From the NCBI GenBank assembly GCA_034723395.1, contig JAYEOW010000040.1, positions 8,424 to 72,423 of the forward strand: a DNA stretch of 64,000 nt, written 5' to 3'. This document shows positions 1 through 6,409 of this stretch, in pieces. A program made the position numbers and the translations under genes. This DNA comes from Candidatus Margulisiibacteriota bacterium (GTDB lineage Bacteria > Margulisbacteria > WOR-1 > O2-12-FULL-45-9). Each line of letters begins with the position of its first letter. Within the stretch, counting starts at the first letter, position 1. Under the pieces are notes generated by a model. The model was not told the origin of the DNA. It worked only from the letters and a program-made list of their open reading frames with translations, and searched no databases.

Positions 1-471
1 GCATCCCTGCGAACAGTAATTAGATAATTCGATGATCCCGTGCACGCAGCAGGAATTGCTAAGGTGTTTTTGGCGAAGGAAGTTAGCCGATTTGTACAAA
101 AGCTCGAGCTCTTTATCTTTTTCGAGGTTTAGCAGGTAGAGAAGTTCCGCATCCTTCAACGGCAGGTCTTCCAATGCTTTGTCCAGGATAAGCGATAACT
201 TTTTATCGGCTCCGCTCTTCTCAACATCAATGCGAGAGAGACGGAGGTCGAGCTCCTGCAGTTCAAAGAAGGTCTCTTTCCAGGTGGTGAGGATGGATAT
301 CGCTTCAGTTTGGGGGATGTTTTTTATTGCATAGCCCCCCTGGGCATAGATATAGTCGCCTACTTTAAGGTCGTCCAGCTCATTGATAGCCTGCTTGGTC
401 TCTCCAAAATAGGTGAGGGTGATGATCTTCCCGTCGATTTTTTCGACCTTTCCCGGGATGGCGTAACACAT
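1..471 (-). CDS. HypC-like domain fused to a HydE/BioB-type radical SAM domain (runs off the window edge)
   Basis: Hand translation from ATG 471: MCYAIPGKV...GDYIYAQGGYAI (HypC-like), continuing without a stop into ...CCVHGIIELSNYCSQGC (start of CxxxCxxC in a HydE/BioB-like context). Not in the ORF track. Confidence 0.8.
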   Translation of the reverse strand, partial: MCYAIPGKVEKIDGKIITLTYFGETKQAINELDDLKVGDYIYAQGGYAIKNIPQTEAISILTTWKETFFELQELDLRLSRIDVEKSGADKKLSLILDKALEDLPLKDAELLYLLNLEKDKELELLYKSANFLRQKHLSNSCCVHGIIELSNYCSQGC

Positions 472-473
472 AA

Positions 474-716
474 TTATTCACAGTCGAAAGATACCAGTCT
501 AAGCTCCCTGGCATCGCTATTTTCGATCTCAACTTCTGCTCCTTCGACAATCGTCCCTTTTGTCTTTTCCTTAAAAAAGTGAAGTAAGATCTCGGGATTG
601 ATTTCTGTATATTTGCCCATTTTTATATAGACCTTACATATCTTTTTGGCATTATTTTCCTCGCCACGTTTAATAATATCTCCCAAAAGATCTTTTAACA
701 GGTGCATTTCATGCAT
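474..716 (-). CDS. hypA: Hydrogenase nickel chaperone HypA, short form without zinc finger
   Basis: N-terminal MHE motif, GT..EGA.VEIE and C-terminal ELRLVSFDCE; hydrogenase operon context. Confidence 0.85.
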   Translation of the reverse strand: MHEMHLLKDLLGDIIKRGEENNAKKICKVYIKMGKYTEINPEILLHFFKEKTKGTIVEGAEVEIENSDARELRLVSFDCE

Positions 717-1168
717 TTTAACAACTCCTCCGCGGCAACCTTAACCTCACCGCTCATTTTTTCTCCAAGTGCAATATTTTTGGATTGAACTCCAATAAAT
801 AAAACTTTCGATCCGGTGTCATCGGCAATGATCTTGCTGATAACTCTTAGCGGAAAGGCGTGAGTGCTTAAGGTGCTATCAGGGATCGCTTCTTCCGGGA
901 TTATTCTTACTTCTCCAGCCGCCCCTCCAAAATCGGCCGCGTCGATAATAACCGTTTTTGCCGGTTTATAATCAACCGCCTTATCAACAACATTTTCCGG
1001 TTTATCTCCCGCATCTAAGAGAAGATAGCCATTACCGGTTTGTTTGAATTTGCCAGCGATATAAGGACCGAGTCCATCATCAGAGCGCAGGGAGTTTCCC
1101 ACGGTGATGATGAGCGTAATTCCTGCTTTAGACGCTTTAAGGGCCTCTTTTACTTCAGAGGTTAACAA
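695..1168 (-). CDS. Hydrogenase maturation endopeptidase (HycI/HyaD family)
   Basis: GNSLRSDDGLG, IIDAADFG, STH motifs; follows the large subunit. Confidence 0.92.
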   Translation of the reverse strand: MLTSEVKEALKASKAGITLIITVGNSLRSDDGLGPYIAGKFKQTGNGYLLLDAGDKPENVVDKAVDYKPAKTVIIDAADFGGAAGEVRIIPEEAIPDSTLSTHAFPLRVISKIIADDTGSKVLFIGVQSKNIALGEKMSGEVKVAAEELLKCMKCTC

Positions 1169-2492
1169 ACTTCACGTCCAGGAAATGCGCGGAACAGGAG
1201 ATACAGGGATCATAAGCCCTGACCAGCATCTCAAGGGCCAAGGTTATCTCTTCATCGCTTTTATCTAGAATTTCCGGTACCAGCTTTTTCATATCGTGTT
1301 CGATATTGTTAACATTTTGATTGGTGGGAATAACGCAATTGGCTTTTTGGATGATCCCTTTTTCGTCAACTTCGTAGTTGTGGAATAATATTCCACGCGG
1401 AACTTCTACGGCGCCAACGCCATTGCCGGGCTTGACCGGAATGGTCCCTTTTTCGTTTAATCCGACAATTACTGTCTCATCCCGATTGATCCCGTTTTTC
1501 TTAAGATCTTCCATGATCTGGATCGAATCTTCAAGCGAATGGACGCATTCGACCAGTTGGGCGGCGGTGTTTAAATATGGATTGATACATTTTGGTTTTA
1601 AGCCGACCGCATCGGCGACCGCCTTGGCCTTTGGATGTAGTTTACCGGCATTCAAGTTAAATCGAGCCAGGGCCCCGACCGCGTAAGAGTCGCGGCTCAG
1701 CTTGGCATGCTTTGCCGAAGAGTGGGGGACGACGAATTCATTGGTGATCTTCTTGTAATCTTTTTTGTTCATCCTTACCCCGTCAGTCGATCCTACTTCC
1801 CCGCTAAGCATCGGATATTCGGCGTCGTCGCTTACCAGCCCGACATATTCGGTATCCCTTTCAAATTCGGGGAACTTTAAGGTTGCCGCAAGCTCAACCG
1901 TGGCTTCCATATCCGGGCGCATATTGTAAAGAATGTTCAGCATGGCGTCCAGATCTTTTTCTTTAGGAAGCTTGGTGAATCCCCCTACAATCGAGGAGAT
2001 CGGGTGGACATGCCGGCCGACCAGGAGATCACAGACATCATTGCTGGCCTTTTTCATCCTAAGGGCGCGGCGGACAACTTTATTGTGCGTATCAATCAGC
2101 GGAACAAAGCTTTTTACCCCCAAAAGATCGGGAGCGACCAGTAAATATATATGCAGGAGGTGGCTGTCTAGGTTTTCCATGTGCAGCAGGAATTTTCGCA
2201 GCTTGATCGTCTGCTCCGACGGAGTAAAACCGATCGCATCTTCCGCCGCCTGGATGGAGGCCAAAGTGTGGCCGCAGGAGCATATCCCGCAGATCCGGCA
2301 AGTGATGTGCTGGGCCTCAAAGATCGAACGCCCCTGGAGCATCCCCTCAAAAAATCGGGGAGCTTCGACGATCTGCAGCTGGCAGGTCTTTAATTCACCG
2401 TTCTTAACGTCGACAACAATATTTCCGTGGCCTTCGACCCGGGTCAAATATTCAACATTTACACATACATTTCTTTTACTCATGATTGTCAT
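1155..2492 (-). CDS. NiFe hydrogenase large subunit (group 3b-like)
   Basis: TRVEGHG, L1 RICGIC, L2 DPCISCSAH followed by a cleavable C-terminal extension. Confidence 0.96.
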   Translation of the reverse strand: MTIMSKRNVCVNVEYLTRVEGHGNIVVDVKNGELKTCQLQIVEAPRFFEGMLQGRSIFEAQHITCRICGICSCGHTLASIQAAEDAIGFTPSEQTIKLRKFLLHMENLDSHLLHIYLLVAPDLLGVKSFVPLIDTHNKVVRRALRMKKASNDVCDLLVGRHVHPISSIVGGFTKLPKEKDLDAMLNILYNMRPDMEATVELAATLKFPEFERDTEYVGLVSDDAEYPMLSGEVGSTDGVRMNKKDYKKITNEFVVPHSSAKHAKLSRDSYAVGALARFNLNAGKLHPKAKAVADAVGLKPKCINPYLNTAAQLVECVHSLEDSIQIMEDLKKNGINRDETVIVGLNEKGTIPVKPGNGVGAVEVPRGILFHNYEVDEKGIIQKANCVIPTNQNVNNIEHDMKKLVPEILDKSDEEITLALEMLVRAYDPCISCSAHFLDVKFVNL

Positions 2493-3225
2493 TTTCCCTG
2501 CATTTGTTATACATATTCATCTTGTTTTTGATCAGGTCCATCGGGATTTTATATTTTTTGATCACATCGATCGCGCCATTTTCATTTGGATTGCTTACCA
2601 TCCCCCGGCATCCATAGCAGATATTGCCATTATTAATACACCAGGAGTTGCAGCCGGCGCGCGTGATCGGCCCCAAACAGGTGATCCCCTTTTGGTAGAG
2701 GCAGACGTTTTCATTTAATTTGCATTCAACGCAGACCGAATAATCAGGGACATCATAAGGGAGGCCGGCGAGGGCGGCCTTTAGTACTTTAACAAATTCC
2801 GGGATATAGACCGGGCAGCCGTGTACCAGGTAATCAACTTTTACCACCTGGGGGACCGAGCGGGTCTCGATTGTTTCGAAAAATTTAGCGTCTTTTCCGT
2901 ACACCTCTTTACGGATATCACCCAGTTTAAAATTATTCTTCATCCCGTTGACCCCGCCGATGGTAGCGCAGGAGCCGTAGGCGATTAGGACCTTTGATCT
3001 TTCGCGGATTTTCTTAATCCGTTCGATGGCATGCGGAGTAGTTATGCTTCCCTCGACAACGGCCACATCAAAATCCTGGTCCCATTTTTCGCTCATTACT
3101 TCACGAAACTCAACCACGTCGATCGCACCTAAAACGTCAAGGAGCAGCTTTCCCATGTTGGCGACCTGCAGCTGGCATCCCTCGCAGCAGGCGAAATCAA
3201 AAAATGCTACTTTGGGTTTTCCCAT
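2476..3225 (-). CDS. NiFe hydrogenase small (delta) subunit
   Basis: CCEGC, GSCA, GCP, CLGP and CYGCRG cysteine motifs. Confidence 0.95.
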   Translation of the reverse strand: MGKPKVAFFDFACCEGCQLQVANMGKLLLDVLGAIDVVEFREVMSEKWDQDFDVAVVEGSITTPHAIERIKKIRERSKVLIAYGSCATIGGVNGMKNNFKLGDIRKEVYGKDAKFFETIETRSVPQVVKVDYLVHGCPVYIPEFVKVLKAALAGLPYDVPDYSVCVECKLNENVCLYQKGITCLGPITRAGCNSWCINNGNICYGCRGMVSNPNENGAIDVIKKYKIPMDLIKNKMNMYNKCRENDNHE

Positions 3226-3227
3226 CT

Positions 3228-4064
3228 TTATAAGGCCTCTTTTATATCTTTGATTTTATCGTAGCTAAAAACCGGCCCGTCCTGGCAGCAATAAACATTG
3301 CCGATCTGGCAGTGTCCGCACTTGCCCAGGCCGCATTTCATATGGCGTTCAAGCGATACCAGAATTTGTCGTTCCGGGATCTCTTTTTTGAGCAGTTCCG
3401 CTATCACGAACTTGTACATGACCGGAGGGCCGACAACAACGGCAAAGGTCCTTTCCGGTTCCAGGGTGATGCCGGGAATAAGAGACGTGATCAAGCCGAC
3501 ATTGCCTTTCCAGTCCGGGTCAGCCTGGTCGACAGTGCAGTTGAGTTTTACGTCCAAGCGCTTGTTCCAGTCGTCGACTTCATCATTGAAGAGCATATTC
3601 TGCGGGGTCTTGCAGCCCAGCAGTATGTCCACCTTGCCGAAATCCCGGCGGTTATCTATCACATAATTGATAAGCGAGCGCAGCGGCACAAGTCCAAGCC
3701 CCGCCGCCACAAAAAGCAGGTCATTGCCTTCGAGGATCCTGACCGGGAAACCCTTGCCAAACGGGCCGCGAATGCCAACTTCATCACCAGCCTCCAGTTT
3801 ATGCAGGGCGCCGGTAAATTTACCGGTATTTCTAACAACTAGCTCAAAAGAACCACGCTTAGTGGGGGAGGAGGAAACGGAGATAGGAGCTTCACCCACA
3901 CCTAACAAAGAAACCTCAACGAACTGGCCTGGCTCATGGTCCAGGCTTTCGCCTCCAGGCAGCTCGATCTCAAAGTACTTTTCCGTCTCGGTCATCTGTT
4001 TGGTGCGCAGGACCTTGCTTTTTTTTATCTCGTATTCTGAGTCTTTCAGTTCAATCTGTTCCAT
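3228..4064 (-). CDS. Hydrogenase/sulfhydrogenase gamma subunit (FAD/NAD(P)-binding, 2Fe-2S)
   Basis: PGQF, RGPFGKGF, ERHMKCGLGKCGHC, CQDGPVF. Confidence 0.93.
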   Translation of the reverse strand: MEQIELKDSEYEIKKSKVLRTKQMTETEKYFEIELPGGESLDHEPGQFVEVSLLGVGEAPISVSSSPTKRGSFELVVRNTGKFTGALHKLEAGDEVGIRGPFGKGFPVRILEGNDLLFVAAGLGLVPLRSLINYVIDNRRDFGKVDILLGCKTPQNMLFNDEVDDWNKRLDVKLNCTVDQADPDWKGNVGLITSLIPGITLEPERTFAVVVGPPVMYKFVIAELLKKEIPERQILVSLERHMKCGLGKCGHCQIGNVYCCQDGPVFSYDKIKDIKEAL

Positions 4065-4065
4065 T

Positions 4066-5127
4066 TTAACCTCTTCCTGCTTTGGTGTCTTTAATATCTT
4101 GTTCTTCGACCAGTTGGGTCAGCGTTTCTTTTAGGTTGATCTCAGCCATACAGGTCCGGCTGCAGCGGCCGCAGCCCGTGCAGAATAATCTTGAAAACTT
4201 TTCCATAGGGTATTTAAATTTTCTGTAATAGCGGTGGCGTTGACGGGCGGCGCGTTCTTCGCGAAAACTTTCGCCTCCAGCGACCTTGGCAAAGCCTTCG
4301 TTCTGGCAGGAATCCCAGCGTCGGTAGCGTTTACCAGTCTTCAGGTCGAGGTTTGGCTCATCGACTACGTCAAAGCAGTAGCAGGTAGGGCAGACATTAG
4401 TGCAGTTGCCGCAGGCCAAACATTTTTCACCCAGTTGTTCCCAGACCTTGCTGTTATAGCTTTTATCGAACATTTCCGGGATCTTTTCGTGGACGACCGG
4501 CACCTCGTTGGCAAAGATCTTTCTTTTCTCTTCCCTGAGCGCGTCCAAAGCTTTTAGGTCGGGTGGAGTGGCTTCAGCAAAAAGTTTGCTTTTCTCGATT
4601 ATTGCGTCCCCGGCCTGAGTGTTAATATGGATAATATACTTGTCCCCGATATCGGTCATAAAGAGGTCGTAACCGCCGTTTGGCGTATGGTTGTGTACCA
4701 GGCGGCAGCTGGCAAATTCATCGCAATAATCATTGCATTCATAGCCAACGATGGTGATCTTGTTCTTGCGAATCAGATAGTTAATGTCTTTGGGGCGCTC
4801 AGAGAAAACCATATTCAAGCATTGGATGCCGGCCAGATCACAAGTATGGACGCCGAACAGCACCATTTCTTCGCATTCCACCACCGGCTGCATATCTTGT
4901 CCTTTGCTGGTATCAAAGGTGGCCAGAGTCTCGAATTGCGGTATAAAATATTTCTTAGGCGGCAGGATGGTGGGGATGTGATCAATCGAGACCTGTTCGC
5001 CTGAGGTCACGTCTTCAAAAGCGAATTTATTGCTACCTTTGGCGACCGGGGCAACTACCCGCTGTCCTTTGGCCAGTTCGGTGATGAACTTATCCAGGTC
5101 TGTTTTTTTTATCGTTACGTATTGCAT
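4066..5127 (-). CDS. Hydrogenase/sulfhydrogenase beta subunit (4Fe-4S dicluster)
   Basis: CLACGNCTNVCPTCYC and CTGCGRCSRTC; ATG 5127 chosen, TTG 5145 is an alternative start. Confidence 0.93.
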   Translation of the reverse strand: MQYVTIKKTDLDKFITELAKGQRVVAPVAKGSNKFAFEDVTSGEQVSIDHIPTILPPKKYFIPQFETLATFDTSKGQDMQPVVECEEMVLFGVHTCDLAGIQCLNMVFSERPKDINYLIRKNKITIVGYECNDYCDEFASCRLVHNHTPNGGYDLFMTDIGDKYIIHINTQAGDAIIEKSKLFAEATPPDLKALDALREEKRKIFANEVPVVHEKIPEMFDKSYNSKVWEQLGEKCLACGNCTNVCPTCYCFDVVDEPNLDLKTGKRYRRWDSCQNEGFAKVAGGESFREERAARQRHRYYRKFKYPMEKFSRLFCTGCGRCSRTCMAEINLKETLTQLVEEQDIKDTKAGRG

Positions 5128-5134
5128 AAAGGAT

Positions 5135-5152
5135 TTGTGAAACAAATCACAA
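5135..5152. promoter_or_regulatory. Rex operator of the hydrogenase operon
   Basis: TTGTGA-AACAAA-TCACAA, close to Rex consensus TTGTGAA-N4-TTCACAA; rex gene adjacent. Confidence 0.88.
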
Positions 5153-5227: not shown

Positions 5228-5845
5228 TTATTTAATAAAAAACGATAGGGTTTTAAGTTCCATGGCGAGATCAATATTATTTACCTTAACCTTCTTGGAA
5301 AGGGATAGTTTTACCGGAGCAAAATTTAAAATAGCTTTTATTCCGCATCCATCTAAATGGCGGGCAGTTTCTTGGGCTGATTCGGTGGGAACGGTGAGGA
5401 TGGCGATCTCGATCCCGTTGTTCCTGATCTGATCAGAGAGTGCTTTAATAGGATGACAGATAAAACCTTTAATTTTTCGTCCGATCTTCCTGGAATCATT
5501 ATCAAATACTGCTATGATTTGGAAGCCAAGAGCTTGAAAACCCTTGTAGGCGGCGAGGGCAGAACCGAGATTTCCCATCCCGATAATACAGGCCTTCTTT
5601 TCATCTTCGATCCCGAGGATTTCGGCGATTTTGTTGCGCAGTCCAAGAACATCATAGCCGGACCCTCGTTTACCCAATTTACCAAAATAGGAGAGATCTT
5701 TTCTTACCTGCGAGTCACGTATCTCCATCAGGTCAGCCAGGCTTTTTGAGGAAATATTTTTGGTTCCCTGCTGGACAAGGAAATAGAGATAGCGGTAATA
5801 AAGCAATAGCCGTTGGATTGTCTTTTTTGGTATTTTTCTTTTCAT
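5228..5845 (-). CDS. rex: Redox-sensing transcriptional repressor Rex
   Basis: RL..YYR, QVRKDLSYFG..G..G.GY, GMGNLG Rossmann motif, ILNFAP. Confidence 0.97.
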   Translation of the reverse strand: MKRKIPKKTIQRLLLYYRYLYFLVQQGTKNISSKSLADLMEIRDSQVRKDLSYFGKLGKRGSGYDVLGLRNKIAEILGIEDEKKACIIGMGNLGSALAAYKGFQALGFQIIAVFDNDSRKIGRKIKGFICHPIKALSDQIRNNGIEIAILTVPTESAQETARHLDGCGIKAILNFAPVKLSLSKKVKVNNIDLAMELKTLSFFIK

Positions 5846-5848
5846 AGA

Positions 5849-5866
5849 ATGTGAATTATTTCACAA
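5849..5866. promoter_or_regulatory. Rex operator upstream of rex (autoregulation)
   Basis: ATGTGA-ATTATT-TCACAA, overlapping the -10 of a minus-strand TTGACA(5883-5878)-17-AATAAT promoter. Confidence 0.85.
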
Positions 5867-5956: not shown

Positions 5957-6154
5957 ATGGCCGAAAAAAGACTTTTTAAAGAGATGACCATTGCGGAGGC
6001 AATAAAGCTTAAGCCCGAGATCGCGCCGATCTTGATGTCAAAGGGGATGCACTGTCTGGGCTGTGTTATAGCCCACGGGGAGACGATTGGCCAGGCGGCG
6101 GCGGTCCATGGGTTTAATGCTGAAGAATTGCTTGATGAGCTGAATAAAGTTTGA
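5957..6154 (+). CDS. DUF1858-family small protein
   Basis: MTIAE...P....L...GMHCLGC....ETI.QAA.VHG pattern. Confidence 0.85.
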   Translation: MAEKRLFKEMTIAEAIKLKPEIAPILMSKGMHCLGCVIAHGETIGQAAAVHGFNAEELLDELNKV

Positions 6155-6175: not shown

Positions 6176-6409
6176 ATGGTAAACATTAGAGTTTATTCGA
6201 CTCCAACTTGTCCTTACTGTAAAATGGCAAGACAATTTTTAGGGGAAAATAGTATAGTTTTTGAGGATGTTGATGTTTCCTCTAACCAAACGGCTGCTCA
6301 AGAAATGGTCAATAAATCGAGACAGATGGGTGTGCCGGTTATCGATATCGATGACCAGATAGTAGTTGGTTTTGATAAAGGTAAAATCAGACAATTAATT
6401 GGCATCTAA
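6176..6409 (+). CDS. Glutaredoxin-like protein (NrdH/YruB family)
   Basis: YSTPTCPYC, GVPVI, VGFD. Confidence 0.92.
   Translation: MVNIRVYSTPTCPYCKMARQFLGENSIVFEDVDVSSNQTAAQEMVNKSRQMGVPVIDIDDQIVVGFDKGKIRQLIGI

Follow-up and report, generated by a model that had tools for sequence, protein, structure and literature searches.

Maturation of [NiFe]-hydrogenases is, in the textbook account, carried out by six Hyp proteins, with cyanide derived from carbamoyl phosphate through HypF and HypE and the iron unit assembled on HypC-HypD; to our knowledge, the anaerobic source of the CO ligand of this site has still not been settled. [FeFe]-hydrogenases are matured by a different set, HydG, HydE and HydF. 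Here, we describe a gene that encodes a HypC domain fused to a HydE-like radical S-adenosylmethionine (SAM) enzyme, the last gene of a [NiFe]-hydrogenase operon in a 64,000-nucleotide stretch of DNA (the window; contig JAYEOW010000040.1, here C40, positions C40:8424-72423) from a Candidatus Margulisiibacteriota genome (1.68 Mb, 55 contigs, 97.2% complete). The content of the operon and of the genome suggests that the iron-carbonyl-cyanide center can be made in a second way, not described before, and, judged from sequence comparisons, it is likely that the Fe(CN)2(CO) half of the [NiFe] site is built by HydG and this fusion in place of HypC, HypD, HypE and HypF. No description of the fusion or of a HydG-dependent [NiFe] route was found in the open-access PMC and bioRxiv literature, subscription journals lying outside that scope, and the passages obtained from PMC9431212 and PMC11216029 make no mention of the fusion.

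A preliminary description, made from the letters of the window alone, had read positions 1 to 471 as one uninterrupted frame joining a HypC-type start to a radical SAM start. The frame stands, on the minus strand as now corrected; with the upstream part of the contig joined, the whole gene covers C40:7590-8894 (L002:7590-8894 in the locus set) and encodes 434 amino acids with no stop and no frameshift, reading MCYAIPGKVEKIDG...YAQGGYAI...GIIELSNYCSQGC on the minus strand. It starts 2 nt past the stop codon of a gene for an 80-residue HypA. The N-terminus, MCYAIPG, does score as HypC, since residues 1-64 match HupF_HypC (PF01455) with 43.5 bits in the 157-residue piece inside the window and 41.3 bits in the whole protein against a cutoff of 28.5; the score against the stricter HypC model, TIGR00074, is 33.8 bits and lies below its cutoff of 48. 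Residues 98-408 match HydE (TIGR03956) with 239.9 bits, slightly below the cutoff of 254.6, in comparison with 142 bits for PylB and 96 bits for BioB, and ThiH, HmdB and HydG also score well below HydE. In the profile comparison that had been proposed against HydE, HydG, BioB and PylB, HydE is thus the best match, so that the HydE side of the original HydE/BioB-like label is retained, while the general label gives way to that of a distinct HydE paralogue.

The predicted structure of the whole fusion (predicted local distance difference test score, pLDDT, 91.4; predicted template modeling score, pTM, 0.91) contains the HypC barrel, a helix at residues 54-79 and a short linker at residues 80-89. 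A compact two-domain arrangement is inferred from the pTM of this model, which extends over all 434 residues, about 345 of them in the HydE part. The radical SAM part, in which Pfam Radical_SAM spans residues 147-306, superposes on Thermotoga maritima HydE with a TM score of 0.94 (root-mean-square deviation of 1.7 Å over 345 columns), compared with 0.88 for PylB and 0.87 for BioB. Both Pfam domains are present in 117 of the 120 best database matches, and the remaining three (421-426 residues) are apparently clipped at the N-terminus. An assembly chimera was ruled out, as the fusion is conserved in more than 100 clusters. Assembled Logan contigs reproduce the sequence, and the best-matching sample may be the source sample itself.

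Family searches across the window's genome detected one [NiFe] large subunit, in this operon, and one HypC domain, in the fusion. In the same genome, there was no HypD, no HypB, no [FeFe]-hydrogenase H-domain, no HypE above cutoff (best 46 bits), no HypF above cutoff (best 28 bits) and no HydF above cutoff (best 88 bits, a GTPase-domain match); the same searches were positive in the expected control genomes. The only recognizable hydrogenase is therefore this [NiFe] enzyme, and the only recognizable maturation genes are those for the protease, the short HypA, the fusion and HydG.

Species-representative genomes were scanned, which yielded 20 loci with the fusion, and the whole genomes behind these loci were then searched. 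By record title, they belong to Spirochaetota/Brevinematales, Margulisiibacteriota/Saganbacteria/WOR-1, Omnitrophota and Atribacterota; among them are the closed chromosome CP184673 (L029) and L019, a genome titled "curated complete". A [NiFe] large subunit is present in 20/20 of these genomes, HypD in 0/20, and HypE and HypF above cutoff in 0/20 each. HydG is above cutoff in 18/20, with one copy each, and both misses are bins of about 1 Mb. The [FeFe] H-domain is found in 12/20 and HydF in 11/20; eight genomes, including L019, have neither, and HydG is present in seven of these eight. The 11 genomes with HydF, and no others of the 20, also encode an unfused canonical HydE (312-360 bits), and the fused copy scores 164-246 bits against TIGR03956 across the 20.

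These counts bear on whether HydG and the fusion might be an ordinary [FeFe]-hydrogenase maturation set that lies beside a [NiFe] operon by chance. Relatives are indeed labeled "[FeFe] hydrogenase H-cluster radical SAM maturase HydE/HydG", and 12 of the 20 fusion-bearing genomes have an [FeFe]-hydrogenase, but neither an H-domain nor HydF exists in the window's genome or in the eight others, and the genomes that do encode [FeFe] enzymes carry a separate canonical HydE too. In addition, the fused copy falls under the HydE cutoff in all 20 genomes, its HypC domain has no role in [FeFe] maturation, and the fusion occurs in none of 60 genomes of the window's phylum that lack a [NiFe] large subunit. 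This reading was rejected because it is contradicted by the distribution, and we consider it hardly credible.

The beta-gamma-small-large-protease-HypA operon of the window, with the fusion as its last gene, recurs in 13 of the 20 loci, and HydG is adjacent or no more than about 5 kb away in seven loci. In L015, the genes that precede the fusion encode a group 4-like membrane-bound hydrogenase, a protease and HypA; in L012, they encode a full-length HypA and HypB, and HydG is convergent. Where a genome carries both systems, its single HydG has the fusion as neighbor in G001 and G017 and the canonical HydE in G003, G006, G011 and G019, which fits one HydG serving two branches. In Candidatus Caldatribacterium (L031:7745-9042), the fusion matches as two overlapping pieces (query residues 1-248 and 229-432), suggesting a frameshift or a sequencing error.

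The relation to HypD was followed in 101 genomes from the window's phylum, with PF00374 taken as the [NiFe] large subunit. The full-length fusion is present in 29 genomes and HypD in 11, and no genome contains both. Among the 41 PF00374-positive genomes, 29 have the fusion only, nine have HypD only, none has both and three have neither; among the 60 PF00374-negative genomes, the fusion is found in none, HypD only in two (bins that are 67% and 77% complete) and neither in 58. Genomes with the fusion and genomes with HypD are found side by side in one family (f22), and both kinds are spread over many families.

Such an exclusion would be misleading if HypD, HypE and HypF were present and had been missed through incomplete bins or extreme divergence, with the fusion acting as an accessory, for example a CO supplier beside the Hyp system. 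Most of the genomes are metagenome bins, and an accessory of this kind would make sense given the unsettled anaerobic source of CO in the canonical pathway. However, 11 relatives from the phylum and 4/14 control genomes gave HypD matches of 134-508 bits in the same searches, compared with 0/21 (the window's genome and those behind the 20 loci) and 0/29 fusion genomes, including the closed chromosome CP184673, the "curated complete" L019 and single-contig genomes of the phylum. An accessory would moreover be expected to co-occur with HypD, whereas co-occurrence is zero, and we regard a missed Hyp system as very improbable.

Replacement of the HypC, HypD, HypE and HypF proteins by HydG and the fusion can also be viewed from the side of the hydrogenase. 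With the window's large subunit as query, 24 phylum genomes match, of which 14 have the fusion, eight have HypD and two have neither. The large subunits of two HypD-type genomes, G061 and G067, are 77-78% identical to that of the window, the motifs RICGIC, E(V/A)PRG, IPTxQN and DPCISCSxH are the same in 13 fusion-type and these two HypD-type large subunits, and 187 of the 207 columns that are invariant in fusion-type large subunits are identical in both HypD-type proteins. In G067, the operon ends at the protease, with hypF-hypD-hypE on another contig; in G061, hypF...hypC-hypD is likewise on another contig. Near-identical large subunits with different hyp content indicate that essentially the same enzyme is paired with either maturation set. 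HydG is present in 4/5 HypD-type relatives, exactly the four with an [FeFe]-hydrogenase, and G061 is without both, so that HydG follows the [FeFe] enzyme in HypD-type genomes and is present regardless of it in fusion-type genomes.

The likeness of the large subunits also weighs on the idea that the module builds a different iron unit, such as Fe(CO)2(CN), for hydrogenases with a non-standard active site. The known product of HydG, which carries two CO and one CN according to the portion consulted of a review (PMC8162317), would suit such a unit, but enzymes of the fusion route and the HypD route have the identity given above and agree in all four active-site motifs, the E(V/A)PRG Arg and the IPTxQN Thr being among the shared residues. 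A non-standard site is accordingly given little chance.

In order to describe the residues that distinguish the fused enzyme, 131 fused copies (that of the window, 17 taken from the loci and, out of the 120 best matches, the 113 that start with MC, VC or LC and have at least 420 residues) were aligned with 11 canonical HydEs from the same genomes, and T. maritima numbering was mapped by hand from a phmmer alignment to 7O1O. In passages of PMC11826987, Met224 and Met291 of HydE are described as an iron relay and R54, T134, R155 and T269 as contacts of the CN ligands of the product, and in passages of PMC10114646 the product-side site consists of one Thr and two Arg, mutation of which impairs maturation. 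All 131 fused copies contain the CX3CX2C motif (C153/C157/C160 of the fusion), Leu157, Arg159, Met224 and Met291, and Val105 (129/131), Thr268 (129/131) and Thr269 (128/131) are near-invariant. The position of Arg54, in contrast, is His in 131/131 fused copies and Arg in 11/11 canonical ones, and the position of Thr134 is Phe in 110, Cys in 18, Met in two and Leu in one of the fused copies and Thr in 11/11 canonical ones. Asp154-Arg155 is replaced by Arg-Gly/Ala, where canonical HydEs have Asp/Asn-Arg with Arg155 in all 11, and the auxiliary-cluster cysteines Cys311/319/322 are absent from 131/131 fused copies and present in 10/11 canonical ones. Two cysteines of the fusion, Cys141 (129/131) and Cys142 (131/131), stand at positions where none of the 11 canonical HydEs has a Cys.

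By this residue pattern, the fused enzyme is one that keeps the radical and relay machinery with its product side rebuilt, and the new Cys142-x-His144 motif, which stands at the site of Arg54 in canonical HydE, could bind metal. In the HypC domain, Cys2, the residue that comes first in HypC proteins once Met is cleaved off, and Pro6 are found in 131/131 fused copies, and Gln44 occupies in 131/131 the position of the usual HypC His, which we take to be His51 in Escherichia coli numbering, both the retained Cys and the change to Gln having been noticed in the preliminary description. His was never seen at this position in the diverse fused representatives shown, and the canonical HypC of the relative G061 reads GDFVLLH where the fusion has Gln. 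In a maximum-likelihood tree of 18 fused HydE parts and 11 canonical HydEs, with four HydGs as outgroup, the fused copies form a clade (97/95) separate from the canonical clade (93/91); the phylogeny that had been recommended as a check thus agrees with the profile scores in setting them apart.

The HydE-like part alone was also searched against 1.84 billion representatives at 50% identity, and the best 150 were classified. Of these, 17 have a HypC N-terminus together with Cys142 and His144, three have the same signature with HypC clipped at the N-terminus, one is a fragment (P0248), four (P0259, P0260, P0261 and P0310; 342-377 residues) have the signature without a HypC domain, 109 are of the canonical Arg54 type, none of them with a HypC domain, and 16 are other. 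Relatives with two separate genes had been named in advance as evidence against the fusion; most bearers of the signature among the 150 are fused (20, with four unfused), which makes fusion the rule in this clade, though not an absolute one. Two representatives (906 and 881 residues) are single chains of the form HypC::HydE-like::HydG, with 607 and 631 bits for the HydG part, and 17 full-length triple fusions (881-946 residues) with all three Pfam domains were found among the 30 long relatives listed. They are named as Nitrospirae/Nitrospirota and Omnitrophota and lie on contigs of up to 1.5 Mb. These proteins tie HydG to the fusion physically, in addition to the ties of neighborhood.

The window genome's own HydG matches Thermoanaerobacter italicus HydG (4WCX) with 520 bits and contains the SAM motif and the C-terminal CX2CX22C cluster. 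In a comparison of 23 HydGs, from nine fusion-only genomes, ten dual-system genomes and four HypD-plus-[FeFe] genomes, the SAM motif and the three C-terminal cluster cysteines were present in 23/23. A HydG specialized for the [NiFe] route was considered and rejected, as there is no class-specific difference at the motifs compared and each dual-system genome has one HydG. In Atribacterota and Omnitrophota HydGs (L049-L053, L015 and L028), the second cluster Cys is shifted, with C-x5-C in place of the C-x2-C seen elsewhere, and these proteins apparently also serve canonical [FeFe] systems.

One residue sets the HydG of this organism apart. In the portion of the review PMC8162317 that was available, His265 of HydG is given as the protein ligand of the fifth, "dangler" iron, and this position, mapped through an alignment to 4WCX with an assumed one-residue offset, is Gln248 (codon CAG, L002:6850-6852) in the window's genome and His in 22/23 of the compared HydGs and in 119/120 relatives. 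Relatives' copies that are 87% identical to it still have the His. The same base appears, at a depth of about 19, in a contig of the probable source run that was assembled independently; in another run, a relative carries a His codon. Gln248 is possibly a genuine variant, one by which synthon assembly in this organism would be changed or impaired.

The loss of the dangler-iron His would favor release of free ligands here, and with it a scheme in which HydG and the fusion supply only the diatomic ligands, free CO and CN- binding to iron held by HypC Cys2 and the Cys-x-His motif, while the HydE-like domain acts mainly as an Fe-S scaffold analogous to HypD and processes no organometallic cysteine complex. 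The replaced product-side residues and the gain of a potential metal-binding Cys142-x-His144 point in the same direction, and the scheme avoids the mismatch between two CO and one CN on the HydG product and one CO and two CN at the [NiFe] site. On the other hand, a SAM motif and a Met224/Met291 pair that are invariant in 131 fused copies argue for retained radical chemistry and a retained iron relay, and the His and every cluster cysteine are retained in 22/23 HydGs (8/9 of those from fusion-only genomes), so that the synthon site is generally intact. We consider the supply of ligands alone unlikely.

The preliminary description had suspected an alternative supply of ligands or cofactor that links [NiFe] and [FeFe] maturation, and had asked how the fusion is distributed relative to hypDEF and the [FeFe] enzymes. 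The surveys above answer the second point and, together with the HydG next door, the lack of HypD, HypE, HypF, HydF and an [FeFe] enzyme in this genome, the exclusion between fusion and HypD, and the triple fusions, every genomic test run supports the first. From the computed gene content, distribution, mutual exclusion with HypD, residue signature, triple fusions and shared large-subunit motifs, we infer a chemistry for this replacement of HypC, HypD, HypE and HypF. HydG would split tyrosine to CO and CN- and assemble an Fe-carbonyl-cyanide-cysteine unit, as it does for [FeFe] enzymes, and the HydE-like domain, with its SAM cluster and Met224/Met291 relay kept, would take up this unit and strip the cysteine by SAM radical chemistry. 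The mononuclear Fe unit would be neither dimerized nor passed to HydF, and would be caught at the remodeled product site, where Cys142-x-His144 is present, Arg54, Thr134 and Arg155 are gone and there is no auxiliary cluster. It would then be handed to Cys2 of the tethered HypC, which would make the fusion a built-in counterpart of the HypC-HypD complex. The HypC domain would next dock on the apo large subunit and deliver the Fe unit, after which the 80-residue HypA would insert Ni without HypB and the endopeptidase would trim the C-terminus. In genomes that also encode an [FeFe]-hydrogenase, the single HydG would feed both branches, one through canonical HydE and HydF and the other through HypC::HydE-like. 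As a complete HypDEF-independent route, in which tyrosine, through HydG, provides the carbonyl and both cyanides, the HydG product is converted to mononuclear Fe(CN)2(CO) on the tethered HypC by a HydE paralogue that has a new Cys-x-His site, and one HydG feeds [NiFe] and [FeFe] enzymes where both are present, this scheme is one that we favor by a narrow measure.

The docking step was modeled with the HypC domain (residues 1-80) and the large subunit of the operon, both with alignments, and the prediction was returned as "weak support", with a score of 0.35 compared with 0.00 for the best control. The mark for a pass was reached by 116/157 solved complexes and 2/215 mismatched pairs; at scores of 0.60 or below, it was reached by 18 of the 157 solved complexes and by both passing mismatches. 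At least 64% of contacts are common to the runs, and the partner pLDDT is at least 72. Because binding between HypC and the large subunit was expected beforehand, this prediction counts as slight support only.

Several observations weigh against the replacement of the Hyp proteins by HydG and the fusion, or against the chemistry proposed for it. Three of the 41 genomes with a PF00374 match (G095, G057 and G103) have neither the fusion nor HypD, which indicates incomplete bins or further routes; G095 is 95% complete in 10 contigs, and the PF00374 match of G103 is weak (34 bits). The phylum genomes are kin and not independent samples, so the counts overstate independence. The fusion lies away from this operon's hydrogenase genes in 7/20 loci, and in the two of these seven that were looked at (L014 and L017, both Brevinematales) it adjoins an ABC transporter. 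The known HydE reaction leaves sulfide on the iron and leads to a dimer, and a mononuclear stop in the paralogue has to be assumed. An exchange step must be assumed as well, since HydG yields two CO and one CN where the [NiFe] site holds one CO and two CN. In the organism of the window, the Gln at the dangler-iron His means that the HydG step may be impaired or different, and the complex of HypC with the large subunit was predicted with a weak pass only.

The coordinates of the operon and its surroundings are collected in the table below. The operon order is beta-gamma-small-large-protease-HypA-fusion, and together with the subunit families it bears out the [NiFe] hydrogenase context in which the fusion had originally been placed. 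The large subunit contains both Cys pairs (RxCGxC ... DPCxxCxxH) in a four-subunit alpha-beta-gamma-delta operon, and its best NCBIfam match is sulfhydrogenase HydA with 274 bits; as HydA and ShyA are both far below their equivalog cutoffs, the assignment to group 3b is by resemblance only.

Table. Positions of the fusion, the [NiFe] operon and adjoining features (window coordinates unless a contig is named)
Feature	Position	Strand	Basis or remark
HypC::HydE-like fusion, first 157 codons	1..471	-	Frame open at left window end
Cys141-Cys142-Val-His144 motif and SAM-cluster Cys153, Cys157	1..51	-	Third Cys (160) outside window
HypC domain, residues 1-64	280..471	-	PF01455; Met-Cys2, Pro6, Gln44 replacing usual His
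HypA, 80 aa, Ni-binding domain only, MHE N-terminus	474..716	-	PF01155, profile 1-69 of 112
Hydrogenase maturation endopeptidase, HycI family	695..1168	-	PF01750, 49 bits
[NiFe]-hydrogenase large subunit, group 3b-like, C-terminal extension	1155..2492	-	PF00374; RICGIC and DPCISCSAH motifs
Hydrogenase small (delta) subunit	2476..3225	-	PF01058
Gamma subunit, FAD/NAD(P)-binding and Fe-S domain	3228..4064	-	PF00175, PF00970, PF10418
Beta subunit, 4Fe-4S dicluster protein	4066..5145	-	PF17179
Rex-box-like palindrome	5135..5152	.	0 mismatches; overlaps start of beta-subunit gene
Rex-type redox repressor-like gene	5228..5845	-	Read from sequence and position only; directly upstream of operon
Second Rex-box-like palindrome	5849..5866	.	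1 mismatch; upstream of rex-like gene
HydG, full length	C40:6208-7593		Next gene downstream of fusion, outside window; TIGR03955, 511 bits, cutoff 312

The short HypA aligns to Thermococcus kodakarensis HypA over residues 1-69 only, the Zn-finger domain being absent, and this 80-residue form is kept in the 13 loci of 20 that share the operon. HypB was found neither in the window's genome nor in four tested genomes with the 80-residue HypA, and in L012, the one relative with a full-length HypA, HypB adjoins. The combination of a short HypA with no HypB suggests a nickel insertion that would be independent of HypB.

Upstream of the operon, the Rex-box pattern TTGTGA-n6-TCACAA, the presumed consensus of the Rex operator, has two matches in the window compared with 0.09 expected, and at least two matches occurred in 0/100 shuffles. 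Homologues of the rex-like gene are located upstream of the operon in L016, L020 and L021 and beside HydG in L015 and L028, where they lie between the fusion and HydG. On this arrangement, the hydrogenase and maturation genes are probably under NADH/NAD+ redox control. Two small open reading frames, at 5957-6154 and 6176-6409, both on the plus strand, are divergent from the operon, and the second is glutaredoxin/thioredoxin-like with a CPYC motif. On contig C40 upstream of the window, a gene at L002:3450-4997 on the minus strand encodes a 515-residue protein that matches an HD domain and the Tox-ART-HYD1 ADP-ribosyltransferase family only weakly, with scores under the threshold.

Many anaerobes, among Margulisiibacteriota/Saganbacteria, Omnitrophota, Atribacterota and Spirochaetota and, for the triple fusion, Nitrospirota, appear to do without HypD, HypE and HypF, and the tyrosine-lyase chemistry of the [FeFe] system appears to have been linked with the [NiFe] delivery chaperone in a single polypeptide. 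If the proposed route is correct, all three diatomic ligands would have a defined and testable source, and [NiFe] and [FeFe] maturation, long treated as unrelated, would share an organometallic precursor across a wide range of anaerobic phyla. The protease, the short HypA, the fusion and HydG would then be the minimal set for heterologous production of a [NiFe]-hydrogenase, and the fused enzyme would constitute a natural experiment on HydE chemistry with a mononuclear product. Fusion proteins are publicly named "[FeFe] hydrogenase maturase HydE", "biotin synthase", "radical SAM protein" or "HypC family chaperone", and under the [FeFe] maturase or biotin synthase labels, reconstructions may infer an [FeFe] capacity that is absent or dismiss [NiFe] enzymes as unmaturable. 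The public annotation of these genes would be corrected accordingly if the route holds.

Finally, the module can be set beside the systems that it most resembles. It shares with HydE (T. maritima, PDB 3CIX/5FEW/7O1O; TIGR03956) the TIM-barrel fold, the closest family assignment, the CX3CX2C motif, Met224, Met291, Leu157 and Arg159, and the HydG partner; it differs in scoring below the equivalog cutoff in every genome tested, in forming a separate clade, in the changes at Arg54, Thr134 and Asp154-Arg155, in the gain of Cys142 and the loss of the auxiliary Cys triad, in its fusion to HypC, and in occurring without HydF or HydA and always with a [NiFe] large subunit. With HypC, HybG and HupF it has in common the MC...P N-terminus, the beta-barrel and helix, and a place in a [NiFe] operon after the protease and HypA. 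Unlike these proteins, the HypC domain is not free-standing, scores 41-45 bits compared with 87 bits for the canonical HypC of a relative, invariably has Gln for His, and is found without its usual partners HypD, HypE and HypF in the window's genome and in the 20 fusion genomes. HcgA/HmdB, of the [Fe]-hydrogenase (Hmd) cofactor, offers a parallel as a BioB/HydE-like radical SAM enzyme recruited to a hydrogenase cofactor, but the fusion scores 69 bits against TIGR03957 (cutoff 321) and no Hmd context was seen around it. Whereas carbamoyl phosphate is the source of cyanide in canonical [NiFe] maturation, that source would here be tyrosine. The likeness to the HydG-HydE-HydF pathway lies in a canonical-looking HydG with all cluster motifs and in the single HydG of dual-system genomes, and the difference is that no HydF or H-cluster enzyme is required and that the proposed end point would be a mononuclear Fe unit for the Ni-Fe site.

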